DNA of 64,000 nucleotides from a virus. Each line of letters starts with the position of its first letter. The first letter of the stretch is position 1. The stretch lies in IMG/VR virus record IMGVR_UViG_3300035703_000027, positions 32,001 to 96,000 of that record, one strand, 5' to 3'. Shown here in pieces: positions 8,463 to 50,819 of the stretch. A program made the translations under genes and the position numbers. Below the pieces are notes generated by a model that was not told where the DNA came from, did not search any database, and worked only from the letters and a program-made list of their open reading frames with translations.

Positions 8463-8711
8463 GTGGCGCTGCTTTCAAAAGACGTGATCCTGCACATGCT
8501 CTACTGGGGCCAGAGCACGGCCCACCGGCTGGCCTACTTCGAGCCCGAGGCCTATGCCGACCTGAAGGAGAGCCTCGCGGCGCTGGGGCTGGCTGCCGAG
8601 GCCCCGCCGTGGATCGACGAGCCGGCCGACGCCGGGTACGCGGCGCAGCGTGCCGCGCGTCTCGCGGCGCTGGAGCGTGACGAGGACGACGGGGGCGCCG
8701 ACGGGGAGTAG
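8463..8711 (+). CDS. small acidic hypothetical protein
   Basis: GTG 2 nt after the helicase stop, with GGAGG upstream; 82 aa. Confidence 0.65.
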   Translation: MALLSKDVILHMLYWGQSTAHRLAYFEPEAYADLKESLAALGLAAEAPPWIDEPADAGYAAQRAARLAALERDEDDGGADGE

Positions 8712-8713
8712 CT

Positions 8714-8753
8714 GGCAAACACCCGGCCCCCGTGGCGCGCGCTGCGCTACGCT
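8714..8753 (+). promoter_or_regulatory. class A promoter GGCAA-N29-TACGCT
   Basis: GGCAA 8714-8718, TACGCT 8748-8753. Confidence 0.7.
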
Positions 8754-8772
8754 GGGGCCGGAGGGTGTCGCC

Positions 8773-11598
8773 ATGCGGTTGTTTGCTGCCATCTACCTGG
8801 ACCTGTTGAAGGCCCTGATTCAGGTCAAGGCCCACACCCGGAAGGACGGCACCCAGGTGCGGGCGCACACCCGCAACATCCAGTCCCGGGCCGAGCGCAA
8901 GGAGCTGGTGGCGGCCCTCGCGCGCAAGATGGCGGACGGCGCGCGCACGCGCCACGCCACCCTGGCGTCGGCCGTCGGGGCCGCCCGGTACGCGTCGAAG
9001 GTCAACGGCAAGGCCGTGCACGTGTACGAGCACCCGGAAGGCGGCTGGGTCGCGACCCATGACGAGACGCACACGGAGGGGCACCCCGAGAAGATCGTCG
9101 CCCTGAAGGGCCGGGCGCGGCTGCACCGGGCGGGCGAGGCCTCGCGCAGCCTGGCGCACCTCAAGGGGCCCATCCTGGAGCACGTCGAGAAGCCGGCGCC
9201 CGCACCCAAGGTGAAGCCGGCCCGGCCCAAGCGGGAGAAGCAGCCGGAGCCGGTGGCGACGCCCGAGCCGGCCGCGAACGACGCGGAGGGGCTGCGCGCG
9301 CAGGCGGAGGCGCTGGGGATCCGGCTGTCGGCGGTGGAGAAGCGGGCGCTGGCGAACGGCAACCGGGTCGTGATGGGCTGGCTGCGCAAGCAGATCGAGA
9401 AGCGGCAGGGCAAGCCCGCGGCGCCCAAGCCGGCGCCCGTGGCGCCCGAGGTGGAGCAGGTGGCGCCCGAGCCTGACGCGCCCAAGCCGGAAGAGAAGCC
9501 CGCCGAACGGAAGCCCCGGGCGGAGAAGCCCAAGGCCCCCGCGCCGGAGAAGGCGGCCGACGCGGAACCCAAGGGGCCGCGCGGTGAACGCGAGTACGAG
9601 GACGTGGGCGAGAAGATCGGGGGGGCGCGCAAGGACCTCGCGGCAGCGTTCGCCCGGGGCGAAAAGAGCTTCGAGAACATCGACTGGTCCGAGATGCAGG
9701 AACTCCCCGAGACGGCGGCCAAGGTCATCATCAAGGCCAACCTGATTGGGCACCTGACACCAGAGCACCTCAAGAGCTTGGGGATGGACGCCCGCGCCGC
9801 GTACATGCTGGATCACATCCTCGGGACCATCGTGCGGGCTCCCAAAGACAGCAACTTGGAGCGTTATCGCTATGCGCGGGCGCTGGACCGCATCGCCAGG
9901 GCGGTGCGTAACGTCAAAACGCTGGACGACCTGCACGGCATGCTGCGAGATATGCACGACGAAGCCGCTGGCGTTTACGGCGACGCCGAGGATCTTGCCC
10001 CCCTGCAACTGCTACAGGCCAAAAAGGCCGTGGTCAGCAAGCGAATCCAGGACCTATATGCCGCTGGCATCCACCCGTCTGGAGACAACGCAGAACTCAA
10101 CAACCTGTTGGCGGAACGCAACAACCTGTGGGACGAGATGAGCACGCAGCTCGACAAGGTGCGCGCCAAGTCACGCAGCACGCCACACCCCTGGGGTGCA
10201 TGCTACGGCGCACTCGGTGCGAACTTCGCCAAAGGCCTGGACAAGCTCGGCTACCAGGTCAGCGATTTTGGGATCCCGTCAGACACCAAGACGATCATGA
10301 ACCTGCCCCGCGGCACCTACAAGACCTCGTGGAGTGACGCCCTGAGCAAGGCGCGCGGCATGAAGGCCGACGACTGGAGCTGGTCCGAAAAGGCGTCAGA
10401 GGGCTCTACGGCCCCGAAGGAAAAGGCAGCCAAGGGAGCAAAGCCGACGGGCGAGATTCGCCTGCCGGACTGGAAGCGCAAGACCCCCGAGCAGTACGAG
10501 CGCACGGGCGGCAAGACGGTGGACTTCGGCGCCCTCTCGAAAGACGGCAAGATCAAGCCGGAGGGCATTATGCAGGCGTTCAAGCTGCGAGGTGTCGAGT
10601 ACGGCAACTGGGTCACGCAGGCCGAGGCGGCCCACCACACGCAGCGCGCCGGCGAGGCCCTGCAAGACCTCGCGACAATTCTGGGGGTCACGCCAGAGCA
10701 TGTCAGCTATGGCGGACGGCTGGCCCTGGCGTTTGGGGCGCGGGGTTCGGGGAAAGCTTTGGCGCACTACGAGTCCGAACGTAAGGTCATCAACCTGACC
10801 AAGCACGCTGGTGGCGGCACGCTGGCCCACGAGTGGGCCCACTTCCTCGACAACATCGTGGCAAACGTCTCGCAGCCGACAACGGGTGAGGTGCAGGACG
10901 CGACGCGTTACATGTCTCACTGGGACGAGAAGGGGGTGCCCGGCCAGGCGCACCCACGCGTCGCACAGGCGATCGCGGGCGTCCTCAAGGCCATGCACGA
11001 GGGCGGCGTTCCCCAGCTTGAATCAGTCAAGCCGCCAAAAAACCCGGCCCCGCTCTACTACAGATACGCCGACCTGGACCAGTTTGTCGCCGAGCACGGC
11101 CCGCAAGAAGGCTTCAACAAGTACATCGAGGGCAAGCGTCAGACCGCGCGGTGGCAGATGCGCACGAGCACCGTGCGCGACTATGCCAAGTACGTCGCGG
11201 CGAAAACGGGGACCATCATCCACTATGACGTGGGGACGCAGAACAGCGATTTTTACACGACGGCCATCACGCAGGACATGGGCTCACCAAAATACTGGGC
11301 AACGCCCCACGAAATGTTTGCGCGGGCGTTCGAGGCCTACGTGCAGGACAAGGGCGCAGAGAAGGGCATCACCAACAACTACCTGGTGGACGGAACCAGG
11401 GTGCCCTCGGACCTCACATACCGGCACCCCACGGCAGGAGAGCGCCCCTTCGCGGTGTACCCGGTGGGCGAGGAGCGCAAGCGCATCAACGCCGCGATGG
11501 ACGACCTGATGGCCGCCCTGCGGGAGACGGACACCCTGAAGAAGGCCCTGGCGCTCGCGGGCCCGTCGAGCGGGATGCTGTTCCGGCGCTGGTGGTAG
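8773..11598 (+). CDS. cargo-leader protein with large-polyvalent-protein (LPD5/LPD1-like) domains and HExxH motif
   Basis: Conserved leader; EDVGEKIGGARKD; FKLRGVEYGNWV; LAFGARG...AHYE...VINLTK...LAHEWAHFLD; YWATPHEMFARAFEAY; C-terminal LKK/AL tail. Confidence 0.8.
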   Translation: MRLFAAIYLDLLKALIQVKAHTRKDGTQVRAHTRNIQSRAERKELVAALARKMADGARTRHATLASAVGAARYASKVNGKAVHVYEHPEGGWVATHDETHTEGHPEKIVALKGRARLHRAGEASRSLAHLKGPILEHVEKPAPAPKVKPARPKREKQPEPVATPEPAANDAEGLRAQAEALGIRLSAVEKRALANGNRVVMGWLRKQIEKRQGKPAAPKPAPVAPEVEQVAPEPDAPKPEEKPAERKPRAEKPKAPAPEKAADAEPKGPRGEREYEDVGEKIGGARKDLAAAFARGEKSFENIDWSEMQELPETAAKVIIKANLIGHLTPEHLKSLGMDARAAYMLDHILGTIVRAPKDSNLERYRYARALDRIARAVRNVKTLDDLHGMLRDMHDEAAGVYGDAEDLAPLQLLQAKKAVVSKRIQDLYAAGIHPSGDNAELNNLLAERNNLWDEMSTQLDKVRAKSRSTPHPWGACYGALGANFAKGLDKLGYQVSDFGIPSDTKTIMNLPRGTYKTSWSDALSKARGMKADDWSWSEKASEGSTAPKEKAAKGAKPTGEIRLPDWKRKTPEQYERTGGKTVDFGALSKDGKIKPEGIMQAFKLRGVEYGNWVTQAEAAHHTQRAGEALQDLATILGVTPEHVSYGGRLALAFGARGSGKALAHYESERKVINLTKHAGGGTLAHEWAHFLDNIVANVSQPTTGEVQDATRYMSHWDEKGVPGQAHPRVAQAIAGVLKAMHEGGVPQLESVKPPKNPAPLYYRYADLDQFVAEHGPQEGFNKYIEGKRQTARWQMRTSTVRDYAKYVAAKTGTIIHYDVGTQNSDFYTTAITQDMGSPKYWATPHEMFARAFEAYVQDKGAEKGITNNYLVDGTRVPSDLTYRHPTAGERPFAVYPVGEERKRINAAMDDLMAALRETDTLKKALALAGPSSGMLFRRWW

Positions 11599-13590: not shown

Positions 13591-15297
13591 ATGCGCTCGT
13601 ACTTCGTCGGCCCGGGGCTGCAAGCCCTGGAGAAGGCCCTCATCCAGGTGCGCCAGCACACCCGGAAGGATGGTACGGTCGTGCGGGCCCACACCCGCAA
13701 CGTCCAGTCCCGCTCCGAGCGGCACGACATGGTGGCGGCCCTGTCGCGCCGGATGGCGGGCGGGGAGCACGTGCGGCACGCCACGCTGGCCTCCGCCCTG
13801 GGGGGCGCCCGGCACGCCTCGAAGGCGAACGGCAAGGCGGCCCACGTGTACGAGCACGCCGACGGCGGCTGGGTGGTGACGCACGACGCCAGCCACACCG
13901 AGGGCCACAAAGAGCGCATCGTGGCGGTGAAGGGCAAGGCGCGCCTGCACCGGGCGAAGGGACCCTCGCGCAGCCTGGCGCACCTCAAGGGCCCCATCGC
14001 GGAGCACACGCCCAAGCCGTTCGTGCCCAAGGTGAAGCCGGCCCGGCCGAAGAAGCAGCCACCGGCCCCCGTGGTGGCGCCGCTGGACGCGCATGGGGCC
14101 AAGCAGCGCGACCGGGTGCTGCCGCCGCAGCGCATCGCGCTGGAGGAGCGCCCCACGGTGCTTGCCGCGCGCGACATGACGGCGCGCAAGGTCGTCATCA
14201 AGTTCAAGGGGGCGCTCCCGAGCCTCAAGACGGCGGAGGTGTTGCGGGCGCGCGGGTTCGAGCCGCAGCCGGGCGACCAGGTGTGGCTCGCCCCGCTTTC
14301 GCGGCGGGCGGTCCAGCTCGCGAACTACACGCGCCGGCGCTACAACGGGCTGTCGCCCGAGGAGCAGGCCGCCTGGGAGCGCTGGCCCGAGCTGCACCCG
14401 CACGAGCGGGAGCTGCTGGCTGCCGCCCCCCTGCCGCGCATCCGGGAGCGGCCCAAAGACTACCTGGTGCCTAACGACCTCACGGAGCGGGCGCGGGCCG
14501 CGGGCGCGGCCTACGGCATCGACCCGCAGTTCTGGCGCAAGGCCCAGGAGTCGCCCGCGTGGCAGCGGCACCTGGAGCGCCGGGTGGCGATCGCCGAGGC
14601 GGCGATCGACCCCGGGCAGCAGGAGCCCGACGACACCCCGCACGGCCTGCTGCTGCGGGCGCACCGCCTCGCCTTGCCGGTGGCGCAAGACCTCGCCGAT
14701 GCGGCCGTGAAGCTGGACCATGCCGCCCTCGCGAACCTCGCCGGCCAGGTCGAAGCGGCCGAACGGTCCGCGGGCGTGGCCCCCGCCTGGGAGCCTGCCG
14801 ACGATCGCAACGTGCGGCACGAGCCCGTTTCCCCGGGCGAGCTGATTCAGCGCGCGCACCGGGCGGGCCTCACGCTGCCGCGCGAGAGCCTGCAAGTGCT
14901 GCTGGCGGAGAAGCCCGACGAGACGGCGGAGGCCCTGCGGCGCGTCAAGGCGGCGGAGGCCGCGCAGTCCGGGACGGGCAGCTTCACGGCCACGCTGCGC
15001 ACGCCCACGGGGCCGGTGTCCCACACCTTCCGGCCCGGCCAGCGCGTGCTCTACCGGACGCCGTGGGGGCGTGTCGAGGAGGCCACCTTGCAGTCGATCG
15101 ACCTGGAGAAGCGCCGCGTCGGGCTGGTGACGTGGCGCGGTGCGAGCGTCGAGGCCCCGATCCTCGACATCACGCAGCCGATGTACCGGGTCATGCCCAA
15201 GGACCCCCCGACGGGCCTGCCCATGGCCAAGGCGCTGGGCCTGCCGCCCCGGGCCCGGCCCGTCAGCTCGCGGCTGTTTGCACGCTTCCTCGGCTGA
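13591..15297 (+). CDS. cargo-leader protein, paralog B
   Basis: RBS AGGAGG; LEK/AL plus leader; shares LANYTRRRYNGL, PHGLL and HTFRPGQRV with paralog A; C-terminal MAK/AL tail. Confidence 0.8.
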   Translation: MRSYFVGPGLQALEKALIQVRQHTRKDGTVVRAHTRNVQSRSERHDMVAALSRRMAGGEHVRHATLASALGGARHASKANGKAAHVYEHADGGWVVTHDASHTEGHKERIVAVKGKARLHRAKGPSRSLAHLKGPIAEHTPKPFVPKVKPARPKKQPPAPVVAPLDAHGAKQRDRVLPPQRIALEERPTVLAARDMTARKVVIKFKGALPSLKTAEVLRARGFEPQPGDQVWLAPLSRRAVQLANYTRRRYNGLSPEEQAAWERWPELHPHERELLAAAPLPRIRERPKDYLVPNDLTERARAAGAAYGIDPQFWRKAQESPAWQRHLERRVAIAEAAIDPGQQEPDDTPHGLLLRAHRLALPVAQDLADAAVKLDHAALANLAGQVEAAERSAGVAPAWEPADDRNVRHEPVSPGELIQRAHRAGLTLPRESLQVLLAEKPDETAEALRRVKAAEAAQSGTGSFTATLRTPTGPVSHTFRPGQRVLYRTPWGRVEEATLQSIDLEKRRVGLVTWRGASVEAPILDITQPMYRVMPKDPPTGLPMAKALGLPPRARPVSSRLFARFLG

Positions 15298-16126
15298 CGG
15301 CGGCCACCTCGGCCGGGTCGAAGCCGTGCTGCAAGGGGTCGAGGCCCACGCGCAGCGCTTCCTGGATGGCGGCGAGGCGCACCGGGGCCAGCCGGCTCCG
15401 GGCGCGGCGAGACAGCGTGCCCTGCACGGTTTCGCGGCTCGCCAGGCGCGCCGGCTCCGCGGGCGTCACCACCCGCTCGGGCGGGGCGGCCACCGCCACC
15501 GCCGCCCGGGCGATCGCCTGGTGGTCGGCGTCGGGGCCGGCGGCAGCCACCAGGGCCGTCGCCATCGTCGCGGCCTCGGCCCGCTCGCGGGCCCGGTGCG
15601 CCTCGCCCTCCACCAGTCCGGCGGGCTTCGTCCACATCGGGCGCCAGTCGCCCAGGATGGCGAGCCGCAGGTAGTGCCCGGGCGCCACGGGCTGCCCCTT
15701 GAGCCGGAAGGTCCAGCCCGCGGCCTTGCGCTCCGCGTGGTAGCCGAGCTGGCGCTCCACCCGCTCCCGGCCGTGCTCCCGAATCAGGTTGACCGCCGCC
15801 CCCGGGTAGATGCCCTCGGCCCGCAGGGCCTGCACCAGCGGGTCGTCGTCCGTCAGCGCAGCCCCCTGCGCAGCATCCTGCGCCGATCCTCTCTCTGTCC
15901 CATGCTCGATCTTACGATCGTCATGCGAAGAATCCTGCGCAGGGACGACGCCGACCTCCCGGACAGCCTTCAGCCCCCCCTCGATGGTGCGCACCGAGCA
16001 GCCCCATGCCTCCGCCCACCGGCCCTTCGGGCAGGGGCCGTCGGTTTCGAGCGACAGCGCGACCAGCACCTGCATGGGGTTCAGGCCGGCGGCAAACAAA
16101 GCGGTGATGCGGTTGTGCAGCGACAT
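15263..16126 (-). CDS. helix-turn-helix protein, possible replication initiator
   Basis: N-terminal HTH-like segment (KGRWAEAWGCSVRTIEGGLKAV), low-GC linker, C-terminal helical domain (PGHYLRLAILGDW). Function is inferred. Confidence 0.5.
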   Translation of the reverse strand: MSLHNRITALFAAGLNPMQVLVALSLETDGPCPKGRWAEAWGCSVRTIEGGLKAVREVGVVPAQDSSHDDRKIEHGTERGSAQDAAQGAALTDDDPLVQALRAEGIYPGAAVNLIREHGRERVERQLGYHAERKAAGWTFRLKGQPVAPGHYLRLAILGDWRPMWTKPAGLVEGEAHRARERAEAATMATALVAAAGPDADHQAIARAAVAVAAPPERVVTPAEPARLASRETVQGTLSRRARSRLAPVRLAAIQEALRVGLDPLQHGFDPAEVAAVSRGSVQTAAS

Positions 16127-16173
16127 GGGCAATCCTTTCAAGGGGTCCGGCGAAAACACGCCGGGGGGAGCCC

Positions 16174-16202
16174 TTGACACCTGGATCGCGCTGCCATACG
16201 CT
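16174..16202 (+). promoter_or_regulatory. sigma70-type promoter TTGACA-N17-TACGCT
   Basis: Perfect -35 at 16174-16179, 17-nt spacer, -10 at 16197-16202; points toward the sigma factor gene. Confidence 0.65.
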
Positions 16203-16429
16203 GGATCTGCTCTTGATCTTGTATGGCTTTTTGCGCGGTTTTGGGTGTCAGGGGCGGCGGCTCTAGGGCGGCGGCTTAGGAAACCAACTCCGACGGGTTA
16301 GATGCTTCGGTGTCTGACTGGGCTATCTCGATCCTCGTAACCACCTCCGTGTTCACGCACGGGGGTGGTTATGTTTTATAGGGGCTCGCTCGGTTGGATC
16401 GCAAGGTCGGCGATCGCAGACGGGACCGG

Positions 16430-16469
16430 GGCAATCCGCCGCGAAGCGCGCACGGGGCCGTGTTACGGT
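16430..16469 (+). promoter_or_regulatory. class A promoter GGCAA-N29-TACGGT
   Basis: GGCAA 16430-16434, TACGGT 16464-16469, ahead of ATG 16490. Confidence 0.7.
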
Positions 16470-16489
16470 GGATCCACGGAGGTCCCCCC

Positions 16490-18334
16490 ATGCCCCACCT
16501 GCTGCGATCCGTTGCCGATCACCTCGCCGGGTCCACCCCGCTCCAACGGGTCGCCGGCGCGCTGGCCGGCCCCCTCGAAAAGGGCCTCGTCCACACCTAC
16601 ACGCGCCACATGCACGGCGTCGCCCAGGTGGTGCCCGAGCACATGCGCGCGGACCCCGCCGCCATCATCGGGATGCTTGCCAAGCGGCACCACCACCAGC
16701 TCAGCTTCGACCTGTTCGGCGGTGGCGGCGGCGGGGCGCCCCCGGCCGTCCAGCCCCACGGCGCCGGCAACGGTGGCACGGTGCAGCGCGACAGCATGTA
16801 CCGGGTGCAGGACCAGGAGCCGGCCGTCGGCAGCATCGCGCAGGCCACCTTCAAGCCCGAGCCCGCGCCCCCGGCCACGCAGACGCACCGTCCGCGCGTG
16901 CCCCAGGGGCTGCACCTGCCGGCGGAGAAGGCCGAGGCCCGCAAGGTGCTGGAGGGGGCGCACCGGGACCTGGTGACGGCCCGCCAGCTCGAAGAGGACG
17001 CCAAGCTGGAGCCCGGCCGCCGCGAGGCGCTGCTCGCGCGCGCCACCACGCTGCGCGCGCGGCTCGCCGACGCGGCCGGCCCGGACTACGAGCGCGCCGT
17101 CGAGGGCAAGCTCGTGGCGAACTACGCCCCGGAGATTGGCGGCGTGGTGGCCGACTGGGCCCACAAGGTGGGCGTGCCCGTCGAGCGGGACGCGCACGGC
17201 CGGCCGTCGGGGAACTTCGGCCTGCTGCATGCCGAGGCGCTCGACGCCGCCTACCAGGCGGTGCACCGCTACCGCACCCACAACCGCACCGGCCTGCTGA
17301 AGCTCGTGAAGGGCCAGGTGGAGCAGCGCCTGTTCCGGCACTGGAAGCGGGCCGTCGGCAAGGGCGCGTTCAACATGGGCCAGAACGAGGCCGAGGACGC
17401 GAGCAAGGTCGCACGCTACACCAGCGCGCACGCGTCGGCCTACGGCGAGCAGCCCACGGACGAGCAGGTGGCGGAGGCCCTCGGGATGACGCCCAAGCGG
17501 GTCGCCGACATCAAGCGGCAGGCGATCGCCGCGCTCGGGGACAGCCTGAACCAGACCAGCGAGGACGGCAGCGAGCTGGGAGAGCGGGTGGGCAGCAGCC
17601 GCCAGGACCCGGCCCGGCGGGCGGAGGCCGACGAACTGTCCGACGCCGTGCATACCGCGCTTGCGGAGCTGGATCCGCTGAAGCGCGCCACGGTCCGGGT
17701 GGCGCACGGCATGGGGCTCGACGCGGACACGGCCGCGCACCTCGCCGCGCACACGCAGCTCGACGACCTCGCGGCGGCCTTGCAGGACCACGCCCACCTC
17801 GCCGAGCCCGACGCCCGCGCGACGGCCGCGGTGGGGGCGGTCCAGTGGCGCGCCCCGGGGGACGCGGCGCTGCGGGTGCGGGCGGCGCTGCACCTGCTGG
17901 ACCACGGCGCGGACCCGGTGCAGGCCTTGCAGGCGCCCGAGCAGCGGGAGGATGGGGACAAGCACGACATTTCCGTCTCCGAGGTCTACCGGCGCGTCGG
18001 GCTGAAGCCGGCCAACAGCGGCAGCGTGCTGCGGTCTGCTGAGCAGGCGCTGGCCCGGCACCCGGCGCTGGTCGGCTTCCGGGACGCGCTGCACAAAAGC
18101 TTGTTCGCGCCCATTGGCACGCCGTGGGGGTCGCTGCTCGCGGCGATCGCCCCTGCGGCCCTCCTTGCGAGCCTGCCGGCGCCCTTGGCAGCCCTCGCGC
18201 CCTCGCTCCTCGAAGATGATCGGCACGGCTGGGCGCTGGTGCGGGAGGATCGCGCCGCGGAGGCTGCCATTCTGGCGGCGGCGGCCCAGGGGGGTGGGGA
18301 TGAAACGGTTCACGGTGACGGCGCGGGGCGTTAG
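16490..18334 (+). CDS. sigma-70-family RNA polymerase sigma factor with cargo-like leader and region-4 insertion
   Basis: Region 2-like LVANYAPEI...EALDAAYQAVHRY; region 3 GEQPTDEQVAEALGM...SLN; region 4 LAELDPLKRATVRVAHG...ISVSEVYRRVGL. LEK/GL at the N-end and LHK/SL at the C-end. Confidence 0.75.
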   Translation: MPHLLRSVADHLAGSTPLQRVAGALAGPLEKGLVHTYTRHMHGVAQVVPEHMRADPAAIIGMLAKRHHHQLSFDLFGGGGGGAPPAVQPHGAGNGGTVQRDSMYRVQDQEPAVGSIAQATFKPEPAPPATQTHRPRVPQGLHLPAEKAEARKVLEGAHRDLVTARQLEEDAKLEPGRREALLARATTLRARLADAAGPDYERAVEGKLVANYAPEIGGVVADWAHKVGVPVERDAHGRPSGNFGLLHAEALDAAYQAVHRYRTHNRTGLLKLVKGQVEQRLFRHWKRAVGKGAFNMGQNEAEDASKVARYTSAHASAYGEQPTDEQVAEALGMTPKRVADIKRQAIAALGDSLNQTSEDGSELGERVGSSRQDPARRAEADELSDAVHTALAELDPLKRATVRVAHGMGLDADTAAHLAAHTQLDDLAAALQDHAHLAEPDARATAAVGAVQWRAPGDAALRVRAALHLLDHGADPVQALQAPEQREDGDKHDISVSEVYRRVGLKPANSGSVLRSAEQALARHPALVGFRDALHKSLFAPIGTPWGSLLAAIAPAALLASLPAPLAALAPSLLEDDRHGWALVREDRAAEAAILAAAAQGGGDETVHGDGAGR

Positions 18335-18506
18335 GTTCAAGAGCGCCAGCCGCGGGGGTCTGGTGGACCCCAAACACAAGCAACCGACGAACATCAGCTA
18401 CACCATCCTGGCAGAGGACATGGAAGCCGCCGCGGACCAGATCGAGTGGGTGATGCGGGCGGAGGACTTCGTGTTCCAGGATCTGCTCGTCACGGGCCCC
18501 CTGTGA
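18300..18506 (+). CDS. small hypothetical protein
   Basis: ATG 18300 overlaps the sigma gene end; 68 aa with normal composition. Confidence 0.5.
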   Translation: MKRFTVTARGVRFKSASRGGLVDPKHKQPTNISYTILAEDMEAAADQIEWVMRAEDFVFQDLLVTGPL

Positions 18507-25456: not shown

Positions 25457-25483
25457 CCTATCCACCCGTGCCCGGGTTTATGC
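25457..25483 (-). promoter_or_regulatory. class B motif GCATAA-N13-TGGATAGG
   Basis: Upstream of ATG 25431. Confidence 0.6.
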
Positions 25484-36090: not shown

Positions 36091-36796
36091 GGGGCACTCC
36101 TTCCAGCACGGCATGGTGGGCCGCGATCAACGCAGGCAGCTCGTCGTTCAGCAGCGAGCGCAGCATGGGCGGCGTCGCCGCAATCGCCGGCCCGAGCACC
36201 CCGAGGCAGGCCTCCAGCATCGCCAGGCGCTCGTGGTCGAACGCGCCGGCCGCCGGGGATGCCCCGCGCACGCTGCACGCGGGCGACGTTGGCGCAGCGT
36301 GCGCGCTGCTCGCGAGCTGCTCTGGCGCTGCGTGCGTGTTGCGCCGGCGCCGCGAGCGGCACCAGCCGCACAGCCCCTCGTGGATGACCATTGCGGGCCC
36401 AGCGGCTCCGCATGCCTCGCAGGGCGTGGCCGCCTCAACGGGCCGCGTCGGTTGGGGCTCGGGGACCGCGGGCGCGAGCAGCGCCGCCACCTCCGCGGTC
36501 CACTTCCCGGTCCACACGCCGGACGCGACGGCCCGCCGGTGGGCCCGGCTGTAGCACGTTGCGCAGACGCCGTGCGCCGTGGCCTTGCGCCGGCACCCGA
36601 GGACGCACCAGCGCGCGCGCTTGGCCTTGGGGCGCTTGGCCTTGCGCGCCAGCCGCGGCGTCCACGTGCCATCCTGCACGGCCTCGCGACGCTTGGCCGA
36701 GTAGCACGTCGAGCACATCCCGCGCGCGTAGATGGGCCTGCTCTGACAGGCCGTGCACATCCCTGCCGGCTCCACCGGCGTCGTCGGTTCTGACAT
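36083..36796 (-). CDS. Cys-rich zinc-finger protein, tandem paralog 2
   Basis: GMCSTCYS, GVCATCYSR, GLCGWC; C-terminal MLEACLG.LGPA.A..P..LR.LL.DELPALI.AH. Confidence 0.65.
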   Translation of the reverse strand: MSEPTTPVEPAGMCTACQSRPIYARGMCSTCYSAKRREAVQDGTWTPRLARKAKRPKAKRARWCVLGCRRKATAHGVCATCYSRAHRRAVASGVWTGKWTAEVAALLAPAVPEPQPTRPVEAATPCEACGAAGPAMVIHEGLCGWCRSRRRRNTHAAPEQLASSAHAAPTSPACSVRGASPAAGAFDHERLAMLEACLGVLGPAIAATPPMLRSLLNDELPALIAAHHAVLEGVPHA

Positions 36797-42629: not shown

Positions 42630-43436
42630 GTGGTTCGCGCAGAGTTCGATGGTCGTGATTTCCGCTTGACCCTCCCCGCCACCTTGGTGAAGGGGGGCGG
42701 CAAGGCCGCGCCCGTCGGCGGGCGCCTGGTCGAGGGCGTCGCAAGCACCCCGGCGCAGGATCTCCACGGCGAGCGCGTCGAGCCGTCCGGGCTCGACCTC
42801 ACCTACTTCGAGCGCCACGGGCGCATCAACTGGGACCACGGCAAGGAGCCCAGCTCCATCATCGGCGAGCCCGTGGACTGGACATGCACGCCCAAGCAGT
42901 TCTACCTGCACGCGCGCCTGTACGAGAACGTGAAGCGGGCCGAGGACGCCTACGCGCTGCTGAAGGCTGGCGCGCAGCTCGCGTGGTCCGTCGAGGGCCG
43001 CGTGACCGAGCGCGACCCGGACGACCGGCTGCACGTCACGGGCGCCCTGGTGGTGAACGTGGCGCTGACGCCCAACCCGGTCAACCCGGAAACCACCGCG
43101 TTCCTGACGGATCGCGTGGCAAAAAGCGTCACCGAGGGCGCAGCCCTGGCACAGAATCAAGCCGGGGCCAGCTCCGACCTCGCACCCCTGGTGGTGCAGG
43201 CGCTGGAGGGCGCCCCGCAGAACCTTCTGACCGTGCACCTGGCGCTGGCGCCCACCTGCGGCTGTATGGCCTGGGACGCGGACGGCATGGGCTTCGTGCA
43301 CGGTTACGCGGGAGCTGTGGCGCACTTCAGCCGGTGCTGCGGTGCGCCCATCGACCAGGCGGCAGCCCTGGCACATCGTTATCGCGCGGTTGCCCGTGTC
43401 ACCGGGCGCCAGTTACGGAGGGAGAACAACCCATGA
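42630..43436 (+). CDS. prohead (capsid maturation) protease
   Basis: VEGVAST...DLHGERV...INWDH...IIGEP...WSVEG; sits immediately before scaffold and capsid. The start is uncertain. Confidence 0.85.
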   Translation: MVRAEFDGRDFRLTLPATLVKGGGKAAPVGGRLVEGVASTPAQDLHGERVEPSGLDLTYFERHGRINWDHGKEPSSIIGEPVDWTCTPKQFYLHARLYENVKRAEDAYALLKAGAQLAWSVEGRVTERDPDDRLHVTGALVVNVALTPNPVNPETTAFLTDRVAKSVTEGAALAQNQAGASSDLAPLVVQALEGAPQNLLTVHLALAPTCGCMAWDADGMGFVHGYAGAVAHFSRCCGAPIDQAAALAHRYRAVARVTGRQLRRENNP

Positions 43437-44191
43437 GCGAAGCCACGAACGCCCTGCGTGCGGCGCTGGCGGGCGAGGACGACCTGGAGAAGGGGCTTTC
43501 CCTCTTTGCCCAGGGCGATCCGATGCAGACCGGCGGCGCGGGACCCAACGGCGGGTTCCAGTTCGGCGAGGATGACGAGGCGGACGAGGCCGAGAAGTCC
43601 TACATCGACAACCCCGAGATGGACAAGGCCTACGACGAAGGCGACGACGACGAGGACTTTGACGACGAGGACGAGGACGAGGAAGGCGACGACGACGAGG
43701 ACGACATGGAGAAGTCGCTGCGCGCTCTGCTCAGCGAGGACGACCTGATCGCCAAGAGCCTCGACGCGGCCCCGGTGCTCGAAGCGCTGGTGGACGGCCT
43801 CGACGAGGTGGCGGAGGGCCTGCGCGGCGAGCTGCGCAAGGGCCTGCGCGAGTCGGCCGAGTCGAGCGACCTGATCGCCCGCGGCCTTGTGAGCGTCATC
43901 GAGGCGCAGCGCGAGCTGTCCGCGATGGTCAAGAGCCTGTCGCAGACGTTCGAGGCGATCGCCGGCAAGCCGGTGGCCCCGCCTCGCTCACAGCGGCCGG
44001 CGCACGTGCTGGAAAAGGGCATGGGCGCCACTGCTCAGGCCCCCGCGCTCAACGCCGACATGGTGGGCGCCAAGCTGCTCCGGGGCATCCAGGCCGGGAA
44101 GATCGACCCGGTGTGGGCACACCGCTACGAGACGCAGGGCAAGGATCCTGCCAAGCTCCCCGCCGATATTCTCAGCGCAATCCAGGACTAA
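43433..44191 (+). CDS. acidic scaffold/core protein
   Basis: GGAGGGAG RBS; Asp/Glu tract and coiled coil; eight hydrophobic-x-K/(S,A,G) motifs; located between protease and capsid genes. Confidence 0.7.
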   Translation: MSEATNALRAALAGEDDLEKGLSLFAQGDPMQTGGAGPNGGFQFGEDDEADEAEKSYIDNPEMDKAYDEGDDDEDFDDEDEDEEGDDDEDDMEKSLRALLSEDDLIAKSLDAAPVLEALVDGLDEVAEGLRGELRKGLRESAESSDLIARGLVSVIEAQRELSAMVKSLSQTFEAIAGKPVAPPRSQRPAHVLEKGMGATAQAPALNADMVGAKLLRGIQAGKIDPVWAHRYETQGKDPAKLPADILSAIQD

Positions 44192-44237
44192 CACGGGCTA
44201 GGCGGCCCGCTTGGGCCGGATAGGAGGAATGAAAGAC

Positions 44238-45689
44238 ATGTCCGGTCACGTTTCCATGGCCGACTTCGGCGGCCACTTCAGCCACCTGGGCGACCCCACG
44301 GTGAACGGCGGCGCGTTCGCCCGTCACGACGTGGTGAACGCCCTGAACCAGGCCCTGGAGATGCGCAAGTCGCTCGCCACGGGCTCCAACCCTGCCCTGG
44401 GCTTCCAGGACGGCTCCGCGCTCATCCCGCAGTCGCTCGAAATGACGCTCCAGGTCCTCAGCTTCAAGATGAAGGAGCTGAAGATGTGGCAGCGCATCAG
44501 CAAGGCGCCCGCTCTGGCCATGTTCGAGGAGTACGACGTGCTCCAGCAGTACGGTTCGGACGAGGCGATGTGGATGCAGGAAGGCGGCCTGCCCGCCGAG
44601 GACGGCAGCGTCTACTCGCGTGAGGTCGCACAGGTCAAGTTCCTGGGCACCACCCGCTCCGTCACGCACCCGATGCAAATGGTCCGCACCATCACCGGCG
44701 TGGACCCCATCATCGAGCGCGAGGACATGAACGGCGTCATGCAGATCCTCCGCAACCTGGAGACGGCGTTCTTCTTCGGCGACGACCGCGTGAACCCGCT
44801 CTCGATCCGCGGCCTCTACCAGCAGGTCCAGATGTCCACCCCGGAGAACATCATCGACCTGCGCGGCAAGCCGCTGACCGACAAGACCCTCATGGACCTC
44901 GACAACGCGTCCGCCGACCAGTACGGCACCCTGGACACGCTGTTCATGTCTAACAAGTCGAAGAACAACCTCAGCCAGATCCTCATGGAGAACAAGCGCC
45001 TGTTCCTCGGGGATATGGGCAAGGACTACACGATGGGCGTGACGGCCAGCAAGTTCGTCGGCAACAACTCCGACGGCATCAGCCTGGAGTCGCACCAGTT
45101 CATCCGTGAGGGCGGCGCGCCCCCGACCACCGTGGCCGACCTCGCCCCCGCGGCGCCGGGTTCGATCACCGTCACCCCCCGCGCTGCGGGCGTGAACGAG
45201 GTCAGCCGCTTCTCCGAGGGCGTGACCGTCACCTACCAGGTGCACGCCATCAACGGCAAGGGCGAGGGCCTCGCCGTCGTCTCCACGGCCACCACGGTGG
45301 ACGCGGGCGACGTGGCGGACGTGGTGTTCCCCAACGTGTCGGGCGCGCAGTTCTACCGCATCTACCGCAAGGTGAACGGCGGCAAGATGCTGCGCCTGAT
45401 CGAGGTCGGCCGCGGCGCCTCCGCCAACGTGACCTTCACCGACCGCAACCAGTTCATCGAGGGCACCTCGATGGCCTTCGCCCTGATGACGGTCGAGGAC
45501 GCCATCCGCTGGAAGCAGCTCGCCCCGCTGATGAAGCTGCCTCTCGCCACCCTGGACACCCGGACCCGCTGGGCGATCCTGCTCTACGGCACCATGATGG
45601 TCTACCAGCCCCGCAAGCAGTTCGTCTGCATCAACGTGGGCAACGGCGACATCACGCACGACGTGGACATCACCCGCCCCCGCAACTAG
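44238..45689 (+). CDS. major capsid protein (SPO1/Twort-like type)
   Basis: AGGAGG RBS; EMRK/SLATG...GSALIPQSLE; EEY...EGG...VKFLGTTRSVT; followed by a terminator. Confidence 0.85.
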   Translation: MSGHVSMADFGGHFSHLGDPTVNGGAFARHDVVNALNQALEMRKSLATGSNPALGFQDGSALIPQSLEMTLQVLSFKMKELKMWQRISKAPALAMFEEYDVLQQYGSDEAMWMQEGGLPAEDGSVYSREVAQVKFLGTTRSVTHPMQMVRTITGVDPIIEREDMNGVMQILRNLETAFFFGDDRVNPLSIRGLYQQVQMSTPENIIDLRGKPLTDKTLMDLDNASADQYGTLDTLFMSNKSKNNLSQILMENKRLFLGDMGKDYTMGVTASKFVGNNSDGISLESHQFIREGGAPPTTVADLAPAAPGSITVTPRAAGVNEVSRFSEGVTVTYQVHAINGKGEGLAVVSTATTVDAGDVADVVFPNVSGAQFYRIYRKVNGGKMLRLIEVGRGASANVTFTDRNQFIEGTSMAFALMTVEDAIRWKQLAPLMKLPLATLDTRTRWAILLYGTMMVYQPRKQFVCINVGNGDITHDVDITRPRN

Positions 45690-49058: not shown

Positions 49059-50819
49059 ATGGCAACTCGTGGCATCTACTTCGGGGGTCGCACGATCCTG
49101 ATCCCCGGCGCATACGCGCAAGGCGACGCCTCCGATCTGGTGGAGATCACCGTCGGGGCGCTCAACATCGTCATGCTGGTCGGCGAGTCGGAGGGCGGCG
49201 AGCCCAACACCCCGCTGGTGTTCAACGCGGCCGGCCAGGACGCCGCCCTGGCCGTCCTGCGCGGCGGGCCCCTGTACGAGGCGGCCCGTGCCACCTGGAA
49301 CCCGAGCCCCAGCAGCGCGGGCGCCGACGTGGTGATCGCGGTGCGGGTCAACCCGGCGGTGCGGGCCTCGCACACCTTCCTGAGCGGCGCGGCGACGCCC
49401 GACAACTGCCTGACGGTGCGCGCGCGCGACTACGGCAAGCACGGCAACAACGCCCAGATCCAGATTCTCGCCGGGACAGCCGACGCCGACGCCCGCATCG
49501 TCAAGGTGCGCAAACTGGAAGATGGTGTGGACCAGACCAGCCCCGAGTTGGGCAAGGTGCTCGGGCTCGCCTACACCGGCAACGGCACGGCCACGGCCGA
49601 GGTCGTCGAGGTGTACGGGGAGCCCCGCCTCGTGCTCTCTGTGACGGGCGCCACCGACGGCTCCGCATCCTTCACCAAGACCCTGACGGACGCGGACGTG
49701 GCGACGATCGCCAAGCTGGCCGGCTGGCTGAACGCGCAGACGGGCTTCACCACCAAGGTGTTCGGCCACGACACGATGGCCTCCGCGCTGCTGGACCGCA
49801 CGGCCGCCCCGGTGCCCCTGAGCAGCACGCCGACCGCCCTGCGGGGTGTCAACGGCGCGATCGCGGACTGGCTGAACCGCTTCAGCCCCGCCGCGATCGC
49901 CGAGGTGCTCACGCTCGACGCGGTGGCGCCGGCCGGCCCCGTGTTCCTCTCGGGCGGCGGCAACGGTGCGCCCACGCTGGTGCACTGGAAGAACGCCCTC
50001 AAGCAGCTCGAAAGCCAGCCCGGGTACTTCCTCGTGCCCTGCACGGGCGACGCGCTGGTGCACCAGGCATGCCTGGAGCACGTGCTGCGGATGAGCGACA
50101 TCAAGATCAAGCGGCGCCGGCAGCTCTGGGTCGGTCACGACCCCGGGCTCGTGACCTTCAGCCCGGACGGCACGGTGGACTTCGACGCGCTGGAGGCCGC
50201 CATCTTCACGCTCAACTCCGAGCGCTGCGTCTACGCCACGCCCGGCATCTACCGGGAGTCGGGCGGGGCCAAGACCCTGTTCGGTTCGTGGCTGCTGGCC
50301 GCCGCCCTCGCCGGCATGAAGGCGGGCGGGATGCCGCAGGAGTCGCTCACGTTCAAGTACGTCAGCGCCCTCGCCGTCGAGGGCATCTTCGACAGCCTGG
50401 AGCAGGAGCAGGCCATCCTGGCGGCGGCGACGCCGCTCGTGCCCGTGCCCAACAAGGGCTTCCAGGTGGTGCTCAACCAGTTCGCCCAGACCCGCACCAC
50501 CAACGTGCTGGAGGTCGAACCGTCGGTGCTGCACTGCGCCGACACCCTGCTAACCAACCTGGAGATGGTGCTCGGCGAGAAGTACACGGGCAAGCCCGTG
50601 ACCAGTGACGTAACCTTCCGCCTCAACCAGATCAAGGGCGACACCGAGAAGGTGCTCGCCGAGGCCAGGCGCCTCGGGATGCTGGTCGGGGACGCCAAGG
50701 TGACGCGCGTGACCTACCAGAACCGCACCTACGCCGTCGAACTCAAGGCCGCAATCGCCGAGCCAGGCAACTACATCACCATCGCGGCCAAGTGGCAGGC
50801 CGTGCAGGGCTCGGTTTAG
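49059..50819 (+). CDS. contractile tail sheath protein
   Basis: MATRGIYFGGRTILIPGAY; LVGESEGGEPNT; 586 aa; C-terminal sheath-like domain. Confidence 0.88.
   Translation: MATRGIYFGGRTILIPGAYAQGDASDLVEITVGALNIVMLVGESEGGEPNTPLVFNAAGQDAALAVLRGGPLYEAARATWNPSPSSAGADVVIAVRVNPAVRASHTFLSGAATPDNCLTVRARDYGKHGNNAQIQILAGTADADARIVKVRKLEDGVDQTSPELGKVLGLAYTGNGTATAEVVEVYGEPRLVLSVTGATDGSASFTKTLTDADVATIAKLAGWLNAQTGFTTKVFGHDTMASALLDRTAAPVPLSSTPTALRGVNGAIADWLNRFSPAAIAEVLTLDAVAPAGPVFLSGGGNGAPTLVHWKNALKQLESQPGYFLVPCTGDALVHQACLEHVLRMSDIKIKRRRQLWVGHDPGLVTFSPDGTVDFDALEAAIFTLNSERCVYATPGIYRESGGAKTLFGSWLLAAALAGMKAGGMPQESLTFKYVSALAVEGIFDSLEQEQAILAAATPLVPVPNKGFQVVLNQFAQTRTTNVLEVEPSVLHCADTLLTNLEMVLGEKYTGKPVTSDVTFRLNQIKGDTEKVLAEARRLGMLVGDAKVTRVTYQNRTYAVELKAAIAEPGNYITIAAKWQAVQGSV

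Follow-up and report, generated by a model that had tools for sequence, protein, structure and literature searches.

The DNA analysed here is a stretch of 64,000 nucleotides, hereafter the window, which corresponds to bases 32001-96000 of the IMG/VR virus record IMGVR_UViG_3300035703_000027. The whole record is a linear sequence of 121,189 bp, about 80% complete and with about 70% G+C, which originates from a subsurface metagenome, and partial relatives were found in freshwater metagenomes. The phage is a myovirus, and the subject of this report is one of its genes, an open reading frame (ORF) termed P0001, whose product resembles sigma factors of the sigma-70 superfamily and carries a domain inserted within its sigma-4 region (Table 1). 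This ORF is a real gene. Its codon-position signature, with a G+C fraction of 0.93 at third codon positions (GC3), the GGAGG Shine-Dalgarno (SD) sequence and two 68%-identical homologues sharing the MPH start confirm the reading frame and start codon given in a preliminary description of this DNA.

At the sequence level, only the central part of the protein was recognized. The Pfam model Sigma70_r3 (PF04539) matched with an E value of 3e-5 and 24.5 bits against a cut-off of 25.3, reached 28.3 bits, above the cut-off, in a six-frame search, and gave 37-39 bits on the relatives P0007 and P0008. The NCBIfam models RpoD_Cterm (E 1e-7) and FliA_WhiG (E 2.5e-6) matched far under their own cut-offs; the score for the FliA/WhiG subfamily TIGR02479 was 27.4 bits versus a cut-off of 189.6, so that the protein is not a member and only resembles this subfamily. 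PHROG 351, annotated as sigma factor, also matched, SigA chains of the PDB matched amino acids (aa) 302-408 by sequence, and a profile built from seven family members matched PDB sigma factors with an E value of 2.3e-8. Pfam Sigma70_r2 (PF04542) gave no match to the protein, the sigma-4 model PF04545 was not significant, with a weak match falling in region 3, and nothing was found in Pfam at E up to 5 for the N-terminal extension or the sigma-2 segment.

Structure prediction extended this picture. The AlphaFold model was confident over aa ~145-350 and ~380-600, and every top PDB match of the model in Foldseek was a sigma factor, with a probability of 1.0. Using VIA-align, aa 141-535 were aligned end-to-end onto residues 103-610 of sigma70, 233-526 of Mtb SigA and 86-423 of Thermus SigA. 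For the sigma-2 part, aa 147-289 superposed on sigma-2 of Mtb SigA (4x8k_A) with a Z of 8.4 and a root mean square deviation (rmsd) of 4.6 A over 122 aa, aa 199-289 superposed on sigma-2 of SigE (8b3z_D) with an rmsd of 1.5 A over 78 aa, and aa 142-347 aligned by fold with regions 1.2-3.1 of Taq SigA. The best single structural match was WhiG (7lq4_A, Z 9.1). In the family alignment, the helix of region 2.3, LLKLVKGQVEQRLFRHWKR, keeps by eye a group-3-like G...LxR..W pattern, and a clear equivalent of YxxWW is absent. The preliminary description had called regions 2, 3 and 4 recognizable; with hidden Markov models (HMM) this holds from region 3 to region 4.1, whereas regions 2 and 4.2 escape the models and are recovered by fold. 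The sigma fold it anticipated was obtained from region 1.2 to region 4.2. Judged from its modelled fold, the protein is thus a very divergent member of the sigma-70 superfamily, outside all curated subfamilies, and its predicted function is core RNA polymerase binding and promoter-specific initiation.

The most distinctive feature of the protein is a segment of about 85 residues inside region 4, which lies exactly where the preliminary description had placed it, between ...RVAHGMG and ISVSEVYRRVGL. The C-terminal part (aa 372-614) was modelled separately, with a mean predicted local distance difference test (pLDDT) of 86 and a predicted template modelling score (pTM) of 0.79, and compared with 48,161 representative PDB chains without the Foldseek pre-filter. 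The top 26 of these chains were all sigma-4 domains (Z 4.3-6.2, rmsd 1.9-3.3 A over 57-84 aa), the Z values being modest in absolute terms and the family consistency among the top matches complete. They include SigL, Taq SigA 354-438, sigma-32, SigW and region 4 of SigE bound to -35 DNA. Each contiguous PDB sigma-4 of about 75 residues spans model residues 1 to ~160 and is split by the insertion, which indicates that sigma-4 is intact yet interrupted by a helical excursion of about 80 residues, with a net insertion of ~75-80 aa. The inserted domain itself has a pLDDT of 93-98. It measures 84-103 aa in nine of the ten family members and 37 aa in P0006, and is an ancestral feature of the clade. 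No convincing fold match was obtained for the inserted domain or the C-terminal tail (best Z 3.4-3.8), nor any Pfam match at E up to 5. Foldseek run on the C-terminal model alone returned nothing at E up to 1e-3, whereas VIA-align found the matches described above, and ESM Atlas searched with aa 405-614 gave only sub-threshold Sigma70_r4/HTH (helix-turn-helix) leads. A literature search revealed no report of a sigma factor with a domain between regions 4.1 and 4.2, and we know of no characterized sigma factor built in this way. A conserved folded domain at this place is a new sigma architecture, independently of whether the protein is packaged.

The sigma core is preceded by an extension, as had been proposed, of ~140 aa rather than ~190 aa, since sigma region 1.2 starts near aa 141-147; the linker at aa 77-141 has a pLDDT below 50. 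The order of sigma-2, -3 and -4 and the HMM-detectable region 3-4.1 are shared with group 3-like sigmas (FliA/WhiG, SigF/B) and with phage sigmas (phiEco32 gp36, SPO1 gp28 and gp33/34, cyanophage), and like the phage-encoded factors this one is carried by a lytic-type myovirus with phage-specific promoter motifs. It differs from them in its length (614 aa versus 200-300 aa), its ~80-aa sigma-4 insertion, its ~140-aa N-terminal extension and its 78-aa C-terminal domain. Some likeness also exists with MzaA of the MZA anti-phage system (NCBIfam NF041931), a long sigma-like protein, through a weak match over regions 3-4.1 (E 1.8e-4, 20.5 bits). The protein is not a MzaA member: the cut-off is 800 bits, only ~110 residues align and the gene lies in a phage head module rather than in a defence operon.

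Table 1. Features of the sigma locus and of the surrounding head and tail genes, in window coordinates. A slash marks a candidate cleavage position.
Feature	Position	Strand	Remarks
SNF2 protein with intein, 1,849 aa	2911-8457	+	module member
LPD1 protein	8650-11595		module member
Host-type promoter TTGACA (16174-16179)-N17-TACGCT (16197-16202)	16174-16202	+	
Terminator-like hairpin, 17 bp, then TTTTATAGGGG	16336-16384	+	between host-type promoter and ORF
Class A promoter GGCAA (16430-16434)-N29-TACGGT (16464-16469)	16430-16469	+	GGCAA 60 nt from ATG
Shine-Dalgarno GGAGG	16478-16482	+	7 nt before ATG; same geometry at other class A genes
Sigma-like ORF P0001, 614 aa	16490-18334	+	GC3 0.93
Putative N-terminal propeptide, aa 1-31	16490-16582	+	ends L-E-K/G
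Basic hairpin motif VHTYTRHMHGVAQVVPEHMR, 'IIGMLAKR' helix, Gly/Pro-rich linker, aa 32-141	16583-16912	+	
Sigma regions 1.2 + 2 (sigma-2 domain), aa 142-289	16913-17356	+	fold only
Sigma region 3, aa 298-357	17381-17560	+	HMM, PHROG and PDB sequence matches
Sigma-4, first half (region 4.1 helices), aa 374-408	17609-17713	+	HMM, PDB sequence, fold
Inserted helical domain, aa 409-493	17714-17968	+	between ...RVAHGMG and ISVSEVYRRVGL
Sigma-4, second half (region 4.2 HTH, recognition helix), aa 494-531	17969-18082	+	fold
L-H-K/S site directly after sigma-4 (K536/S537)	18089-18100	+	K536 invariant
C-terminal tail domain, aa 537-614: hydrophobic Ala/Leu/Pro-rich stretch, beta-hairpin, helix	18098-18331	+	pLDDT 71-84
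Conserved 68-aa ORF	18300-18506	+	overlaps sigma stop codon; candidate partner protein
Head maturation protease	42630-43433		
Scaffold-like ORF, acidic, 252 aa, long Asp/Glu runs	43433-44191	+	between protease and capsid genes
Major head protein	44211-45686		
Tail sheath	49059-50816		baseplate genes come after

The sigma family and its place in the head module

An exhaustive profile-free search led to 23 matches, of which the eight at E<=1e-10 (P0003-P0010) form the specific family and the rest are generic sigma factors. Members of the family share only 25-37% identity. A tblastn search of 50,697 phage records with the protein gave no match, and scans of IMG/VR with A1, P0004 and P0008 as queries revealed no relatives. 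Two members, P0007 (2,197 aa) and P0010 (2,148 aa), are sigma::SNF2 fusions in which the sigma module stands N-terminal to a SNF2 helicase, suggesting a functional link between the sigma factor and a RapA-like remodeller.

In the record studied here, the sigma gene is the last of a portal-proximal module of ~35 kb, with the portal at its head (Pfam E 7e-26), that encodes large leader-bearing proteins (LPD1, SNF2 and others). The five further phage contigs that were recovered all show this arrangement, the sigma gene closing a rightward module of large proteins (LPD1, NUDIX, SNF2; DarA_C in L011), which faces leftward small genes of early type (SpoVS-like, ERF/RecT, DNA polymerase III beta clamp). 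The window has the same layout, a portal-led module ending in the sigma gene, with RecT and SpoVS-like genes on the minus strand just downstream. Taken together, synteny and the sigma::SNF2 fusions place the sigma factor among polyvalent, Dar-like head proteins.

The ORF that follows the sigma gene has counterparts in L002 and L004 with 76% identity, and the gene behind the giant sigma::SNF2 in L008 is 43% identical to it. Its 68-aa product belongs to no known family and gave no Pfam match at E up to 5. Complex prediction with sigma aa 141-614 gave scores of 0.00 and 0.05, which weigh neither way on binding; from its conserved position, the 68-aa protein may be a partner or co-factor of the sigma factor.

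A short motif, [LIVMF]-x-K/[GSA]-[hydrophobic], recurs in the head proteins. The scaffold-like protein contains 7 sites, while its shuffled versions average 0.2 sites with a maximum of 3 in 2,000 trials. The capsid protein, which is ~31% identical to SPO1-type capsid proteins, has EMRK/SLATG near its N-terminus, close to the start of this homology, and the protease has RVAK/SV near its C-terminus. In several cargo proteins of the module, a first site precedes the hairpin motif and a second lies 16-25 residues short of the C-terminus; overall, some 11 large leader-bearing proteins carry the motif at their ends. Over the whole head and cargo set, 35 sites were counted versus 9.0 +/- 3.1 expected, and over all other proteins 16 versus 10.7 +/- 3.3. 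A strict form of the motif, L-x-K-[AGS]-[LMIF]-[IVLTF], had seemed confined to the leaders; the sites of the scaffold and capsid appeared with a relaxed P3 position and inclusion of the scaffold ORF. The same distribution is seen in the L011/L016 phage, a 97.6-kb contig whose sigma factor is 37% identical: 7 sites in the scaffold versus 0.35 expected, an identical capsid site (ALEMRK/SLAT), RLAK/AL in the protease, LVK/A before the hairpin of cargo proteins with further sites near their C-termini, and 0-1 sites each in 12 non-head proteins.

The sigma core is flanked by two such sites, K31/G32 (LEK/GL) and K536/S537 (LHK/SL), which the preliminary description had pointed out and which are invariant in close relatives. 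A match directly after sigma-4 is present in 10/10 family members. P0006, P0007 and P0008 are without the N-terminal site, and the hairpin motif stands at the very beginning of these proteins. In the sigma::SNF2 giants the sites cluster in the linker behind the sigma module, at 767, 800, 810 and 843 in P0007 and at 655, 698 and 732 in P0010, and ten canonical sigmas taken as controls have 0-1 sites each. The enriched motif is apparently what a prohead-protease consensus looks like, with a specificity deduced from motif enrichment, and its pattern is as expected of prohead-protease substrates, as with T4 gp21 or SPN3US gp245. A literature search on Lys-P1 prohead protease specificity yielded nothing usable.

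A promoter-leader cassette is common to eleven proteins of the module. It consists of GGCAA-N28/29-TAnnnT, GGAGG and an ATG that mostly lies 57-60 nt from GGCAA, and is followed by an L-x-K-A-L-I-Q-V-K-A-H-T-R-K-D-G-T-x-V-R-A-H-T-R module and ~100 conserved residues. The paralogous nature of these cargo families recalls SPN3US (PMC5512222, PMC7411985, PMC12810830). The sigma gene has the same promoter cassette, and a looser N-terminal motif, LEK-GLVHTYTRHMHGVAQVVPEHMR...IIGMLAKR. Comparison by hhalign of the sigma N-terminus family with the cargo-leader family gave a weak match (P 8e-4, probability 24%, 43 co-linear columns). In the unrelated L008 phage, the LPD1, SNF2 and sigma::SNF2 proteins visibly share an N-terminal basic hairpin and an 'IVxxLAKQ' helix. 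The idea that the sigma factor is built like a capsid cargo is therefore favoured by the head-type motif at both ends, the cassette, the synteny and the SNF2 fusions, and weakly by the shared N-terminal module; packaging and cleavage themselves stay conjectural. For the cargo leader, Pfam returned nothing beyond an insignificant match to Colicin_Pyocin (E 0.11), and ESM Atlas no usable match. One protein of 1,517 aa, L019 (G000:C1:25472-30025), has two copies of the cargo leader (aa 16-47 and aa 631-663) and resembles two cargo units fused into a polyprotein.

Transcription signals around the sigma gene

Both promoters described upstream of the sigma gene are present and conserved in relatives. 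The distal one is of host type and is the sole TTGAC[AG]-N16-18-TAnnnT of the 121-kb record; it is conserved in L002-L004 and in L011. Since ~0.5 such sites per genome are expected by chance (our own estimate), it is the conservation and not the uniqueness that carries weight. Between this promoter and the ORF lies the strong terminator-like hairpin, which the preliminary description does not mention and which is followed by TTTTAT. The RNA from 16209 to 16395 folds at -79.5 kcal/mol (z -3.8), the hairpin covaries in relatives through compensatory changes (CCACC/GGTGG versus GCCC/GGGC), and in L011 a hairpin with a T-run stands right behind the host-type -10. Owing to this conserved terminator hairpin, host-promoter transcripts are probably attenuated before they reach the ORF, which complicates the earlier proposal of a host-driven first expression.

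Three further observations concern this intergenic region. A 15-nt block, ACGCCGGGGGAGCCC (16155-16173 +; L011 9740-9759), directly precedes the TTGAC box, is conserved between phages whose sigmas are only 37% identical and could act as an operator or UP-like element that also serves a divergent HTH gene. That gene (15266-16126, minus strand, 287 aa) has by eye an HTH-like N-terminal region, and its product, for which no Pfam or PHROG match was found, is a candidate regulator of the shared intergenic region or of the GGCAA element; L002 and L011 have a divergent gene there as well. Finally, the host-type promoter would yield a structured RNA of ~170 nt (16203-16384), which could be a small RNA or else an attenuated leader; its hairpin covaries, whereas its body is poorly conserved.

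The proximal promoter belongs to a class, termed A, that recurs over the genome. GGCAA-N-TAnnnT was found at 14 sites with a spacer of N29 and 4 with N28, against 0-2 for each other spacer from 15 to 44, and nearly all of these sites lie just upstream of an SD and a start codon. They conform to the consensus TGGCAAa-N27-cTAnGnTGG, in which the -35 position carries no information. The -10 of the class, TAnnnT with GG behind it, is of host SigA type and agrees with that of the host-type promoter. It is unusual for a promoter to combine a rigid 29-bp gap between TGGCAA and TAnnnT with the absence of a -35 element. Promoters of class A stand before the genes for the portal, the cargo proteins, the baseplate and other virion components. 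In L002-L004 both boxes before the sigma gene are unchanged, with differences in the spacer; in L011 the sigma gene is preceded by GGCAA-N29-TAGACT and the LPD1 and SpoVS genes by class A promoters, and L013 has one before its SpoVS gene. An AT-rich string, TATGTTTTATAGGGG, had wrongly been taken for a repeated 'class A' motif; it is unique in the genome.

A second phage motif, class B, reads CGCATAAA-N14-GGATAGGGG, with a near-canonical spacing of 17 bp between CGCATA and ATAGGG. It occurs in ~8 copies, each with an SD and a start codon ~45 nt behind it. Most lie at the left genome end (G000:C1 2580-11400, upstream of the window), before genes such as a DpdA-like one; in the window it was found at 25482 (-) and 19939 (-), and one copy precedes RecT. 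Class B was not seen in the sampled loci of the relatives. At the terminator hairpin of the sigma leader, ATAGGGG resembles the -10-like box of this class.

Possible roles of the sigma protein

The reading that we prefer, with a probability of roughly one half, is that the protein is a divergent phage sigma-70 factor with a sigma-4 insertion, made as a precursor, packaged, trimmed and ejected. The precursor would be made together with the head proteins, with protease-consensus sites setting off its short propeptide at the N-terminus and its C-terminal domain of 78 residues. It would enter the prohead, be trimmed at K31/G32 and K536/S537, and be ejected with the DNA, so that the next infection would begin with a reprogrammed host core RNA polymerase. 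The conserved host-type promoter with its attenuator would then provide a second, low-level route of expression inside the cell. We hold more tentatively a fuller account, according to which the pro-sigma is loaded with the polyvalent-type proteins, freed at the conserved K/ sites and injected, redirecting the host core before any phage gene expression; in some relatives it would be cut from the sigma::SNF2 polyprotein, and the sigma-4 insertion would serve the recognition of promoters or partners at a non-canonical geometry. As to the promoters read, two scenarios may be envisaged. The injected sigma could drive an early promoter class, for which the CGCATAAA...GGATAGGGG promoters of the left genome end are plausible candidates, class A being then read by host SigA with an activator bound at about -44; the cargo-like features favour this scenario, as it would be odd for an injected sigma to switch on virion genes first. 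Alternatively, as in the preliminary description, the sigma could read class A and auto-activate, which is favoured by the co-occurrence of class A with the sigma family in three lineages.

With pro-sigma-E and pro-sigma-K of B. subtilis the protein would share a precursor extension removed by a dedicated protease, and the pro-sigma-K complex 8vjl_B is among the fold matches of the model. Unlike in these factors, the candidate protease would be the prohead maturation protease, with sites at both ends of the core and a putative coupling to capsid assembly instead of sporulation signalling. The proposed packaging logic resembles that of the N4 virion RNA polymerase (vRNAP), the virion RNAP and ejection proteins of phiKZ and SPN3US, T4 Alt and internal proteins (capsid-targeting sequence), P1 DarA/DarB and polyvalent proteins; the shared elements are a portal-proximal module of large proteins, LPD1/SNF2/DarA_C neighbours, common N-terminal modules and protease sites of scaffold/capsid type. 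Polyvalent proteins have been predicted to be delivered with the DNA (PMC5512222, Iyer et al. 2017), sigma being mentioned 0 times in that text, and a large helicase from a structural gene cluster was found in Thermus phage virions (bioRxiv 10.64898/2026.04.20.719267). A literature search gave no report of a virion-borne sigma factor.

Phages are known to inject whole RNA polymerases (N4, phiKZ, crAss-like) or enzymes that modify the host polymerase (T4 Alt). The protein described here would differ from both in being a specificity subunit that borrows the host core, and to our knowledge no injected sigma subunit of this kind has been described. If true, this would represent a third and much cheaper strategy of host take-over, and would link the proteolysis of capsid maturation to the control of transcription.

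Several points weigh against packaging and injection. The cargo-leader HMM does not detect the sigma N-terminus. The motif is short, ~0.37 chance matches being expected in a protein of 614 aa, its specificity is deduced from enrichment, and the 10 leader copies are paralogous and hence not independent; packaging and cleavage are both read from the sequence. Were the protein delivered by injection in every case, there would be no need for a conserved host-type promoter. The sigma promoter is of the virion-gene class and, if the sigma reads it, injection would switch on late genes first. Lastly, region 2, in our by-eye reading, has no obvious aromatic melting residues, so that the protein may not be a competent initiation factor.

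A rival reading is an ordinary intracellular middle/late sigma factor, never packaged, which would be started from the host promoter by read-through of the attenuator and would then activate class A promoters including its own, in a positive feedback as with SPO1 gp33/34, T4 gp55 or phiEco32 gp36. In that case another use, for instance in binding to RNA polymerase or DNA or in turnover, would have to be assumed for the N-terminal module, the tail and the K/S motifs. The only host-type promoter of the genome precedes the sigma gene and is conserved, this gene is the only sigma-like one of the record, class A stands before portal, cargo, baseplate and other virion genes, and class A accompanies the sigma family in three lineages, which class B does not. 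We consider this explanation unlikely, though the most serious of the alternatives, as it leaves unexplained the motif sites in 10/10 members, the clusters in the SNF2-fusion linkers and the constant position of the gene at the end of a portal-proximal LPD1/SNF2/DarA module; a conserved terminator moreover separates the host promoter from the ORF. In a more remote proposal, the protein would have given up initiation and be a sigma-derived effector that, for example, titrates the host core RNA polymerase or tethers the SNF2 partner to it, as one of the polyvalent anti-host functions. In agreement with it, sigma-model scores are far under family cut-offs, regions 2 and 4.2 are invisible to HMMs, and fusions to SNF2 helicases and neighbours of anti-defence type are found. 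However, all three DNA/core-binding domains, including an intact HTH, are retained and confidently modelled in a family with 25-37% identity, and phage-specific promoter classes exist that need a specificity factor, which makes this effector role very improbable.

The insertion might also determine promoter geometry. According to the preliminary description, it would shift the HTH about one helical turn upstream and thereby explain the 29-bp spacer; sigma-4 would then read GGCAA at about -44 or, in a variant, the inserted domain would read GGCAA itself. The spacing is strikingly fixed (14 sites N29, 4 N28), no information is found at the -35 position, the difference of 29 - 17 = 12 bp is about one helical turn, and GGCAA-N28/29 occurs only in lineages with a stand-alone, full-insertion sigma (window clade, L011, L013). 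The models nevertheless do not support the displacement: both keep sigma-4 as an intact, compact four-helix unit, at 1.9-3.3 A from canonical sigma-4, and since the insertion is a loop excursion from this unit, the HTH is not displaced relative to region 4.1. In addition, no GGCAA-N29 was found in the ~20-kb loci of P0007 and P0010, which both possess the full insertion, and as the -10 is of host SigA type, a host sigma with a phage activator at -44 explains the geometry equally well. We therefore regard the spacer mechanism as improbable; a weaker form, with the inserted domain making its own contacts to DNA or to a partner one helical turn upstream, may still hold.

Other features of the record

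No other sigma-like gene and no RNA polymerase gene was found in the whole record, and no tRNA gene or Rfam family within the 64-kb window. A Thermus host, suggested by the GC content, the GGAGG sites and the TAnnnT -10, is unsupported, the samples being subsurface and freshwater ones. The SNF2 helicase gene of the module contains an intein at aa 1066-1337 with Hint and homing endonuclease domains, and the N-terminus of its product has a leader-like LLSLLK/SL site. The HIP1-like palindrome GCGATCGC is present in 69 copies in 121 kb, where roughly 5 are expected from base composition by our own estimate. An inverted GATAAT/ATTATC arrangement of operator-like appearance, TCGTGATAA-N5-ATTATC, was found at 36787 (+) and 38776 (-), both copies being within a large non-coding stretch (36.1-38.4 kb).

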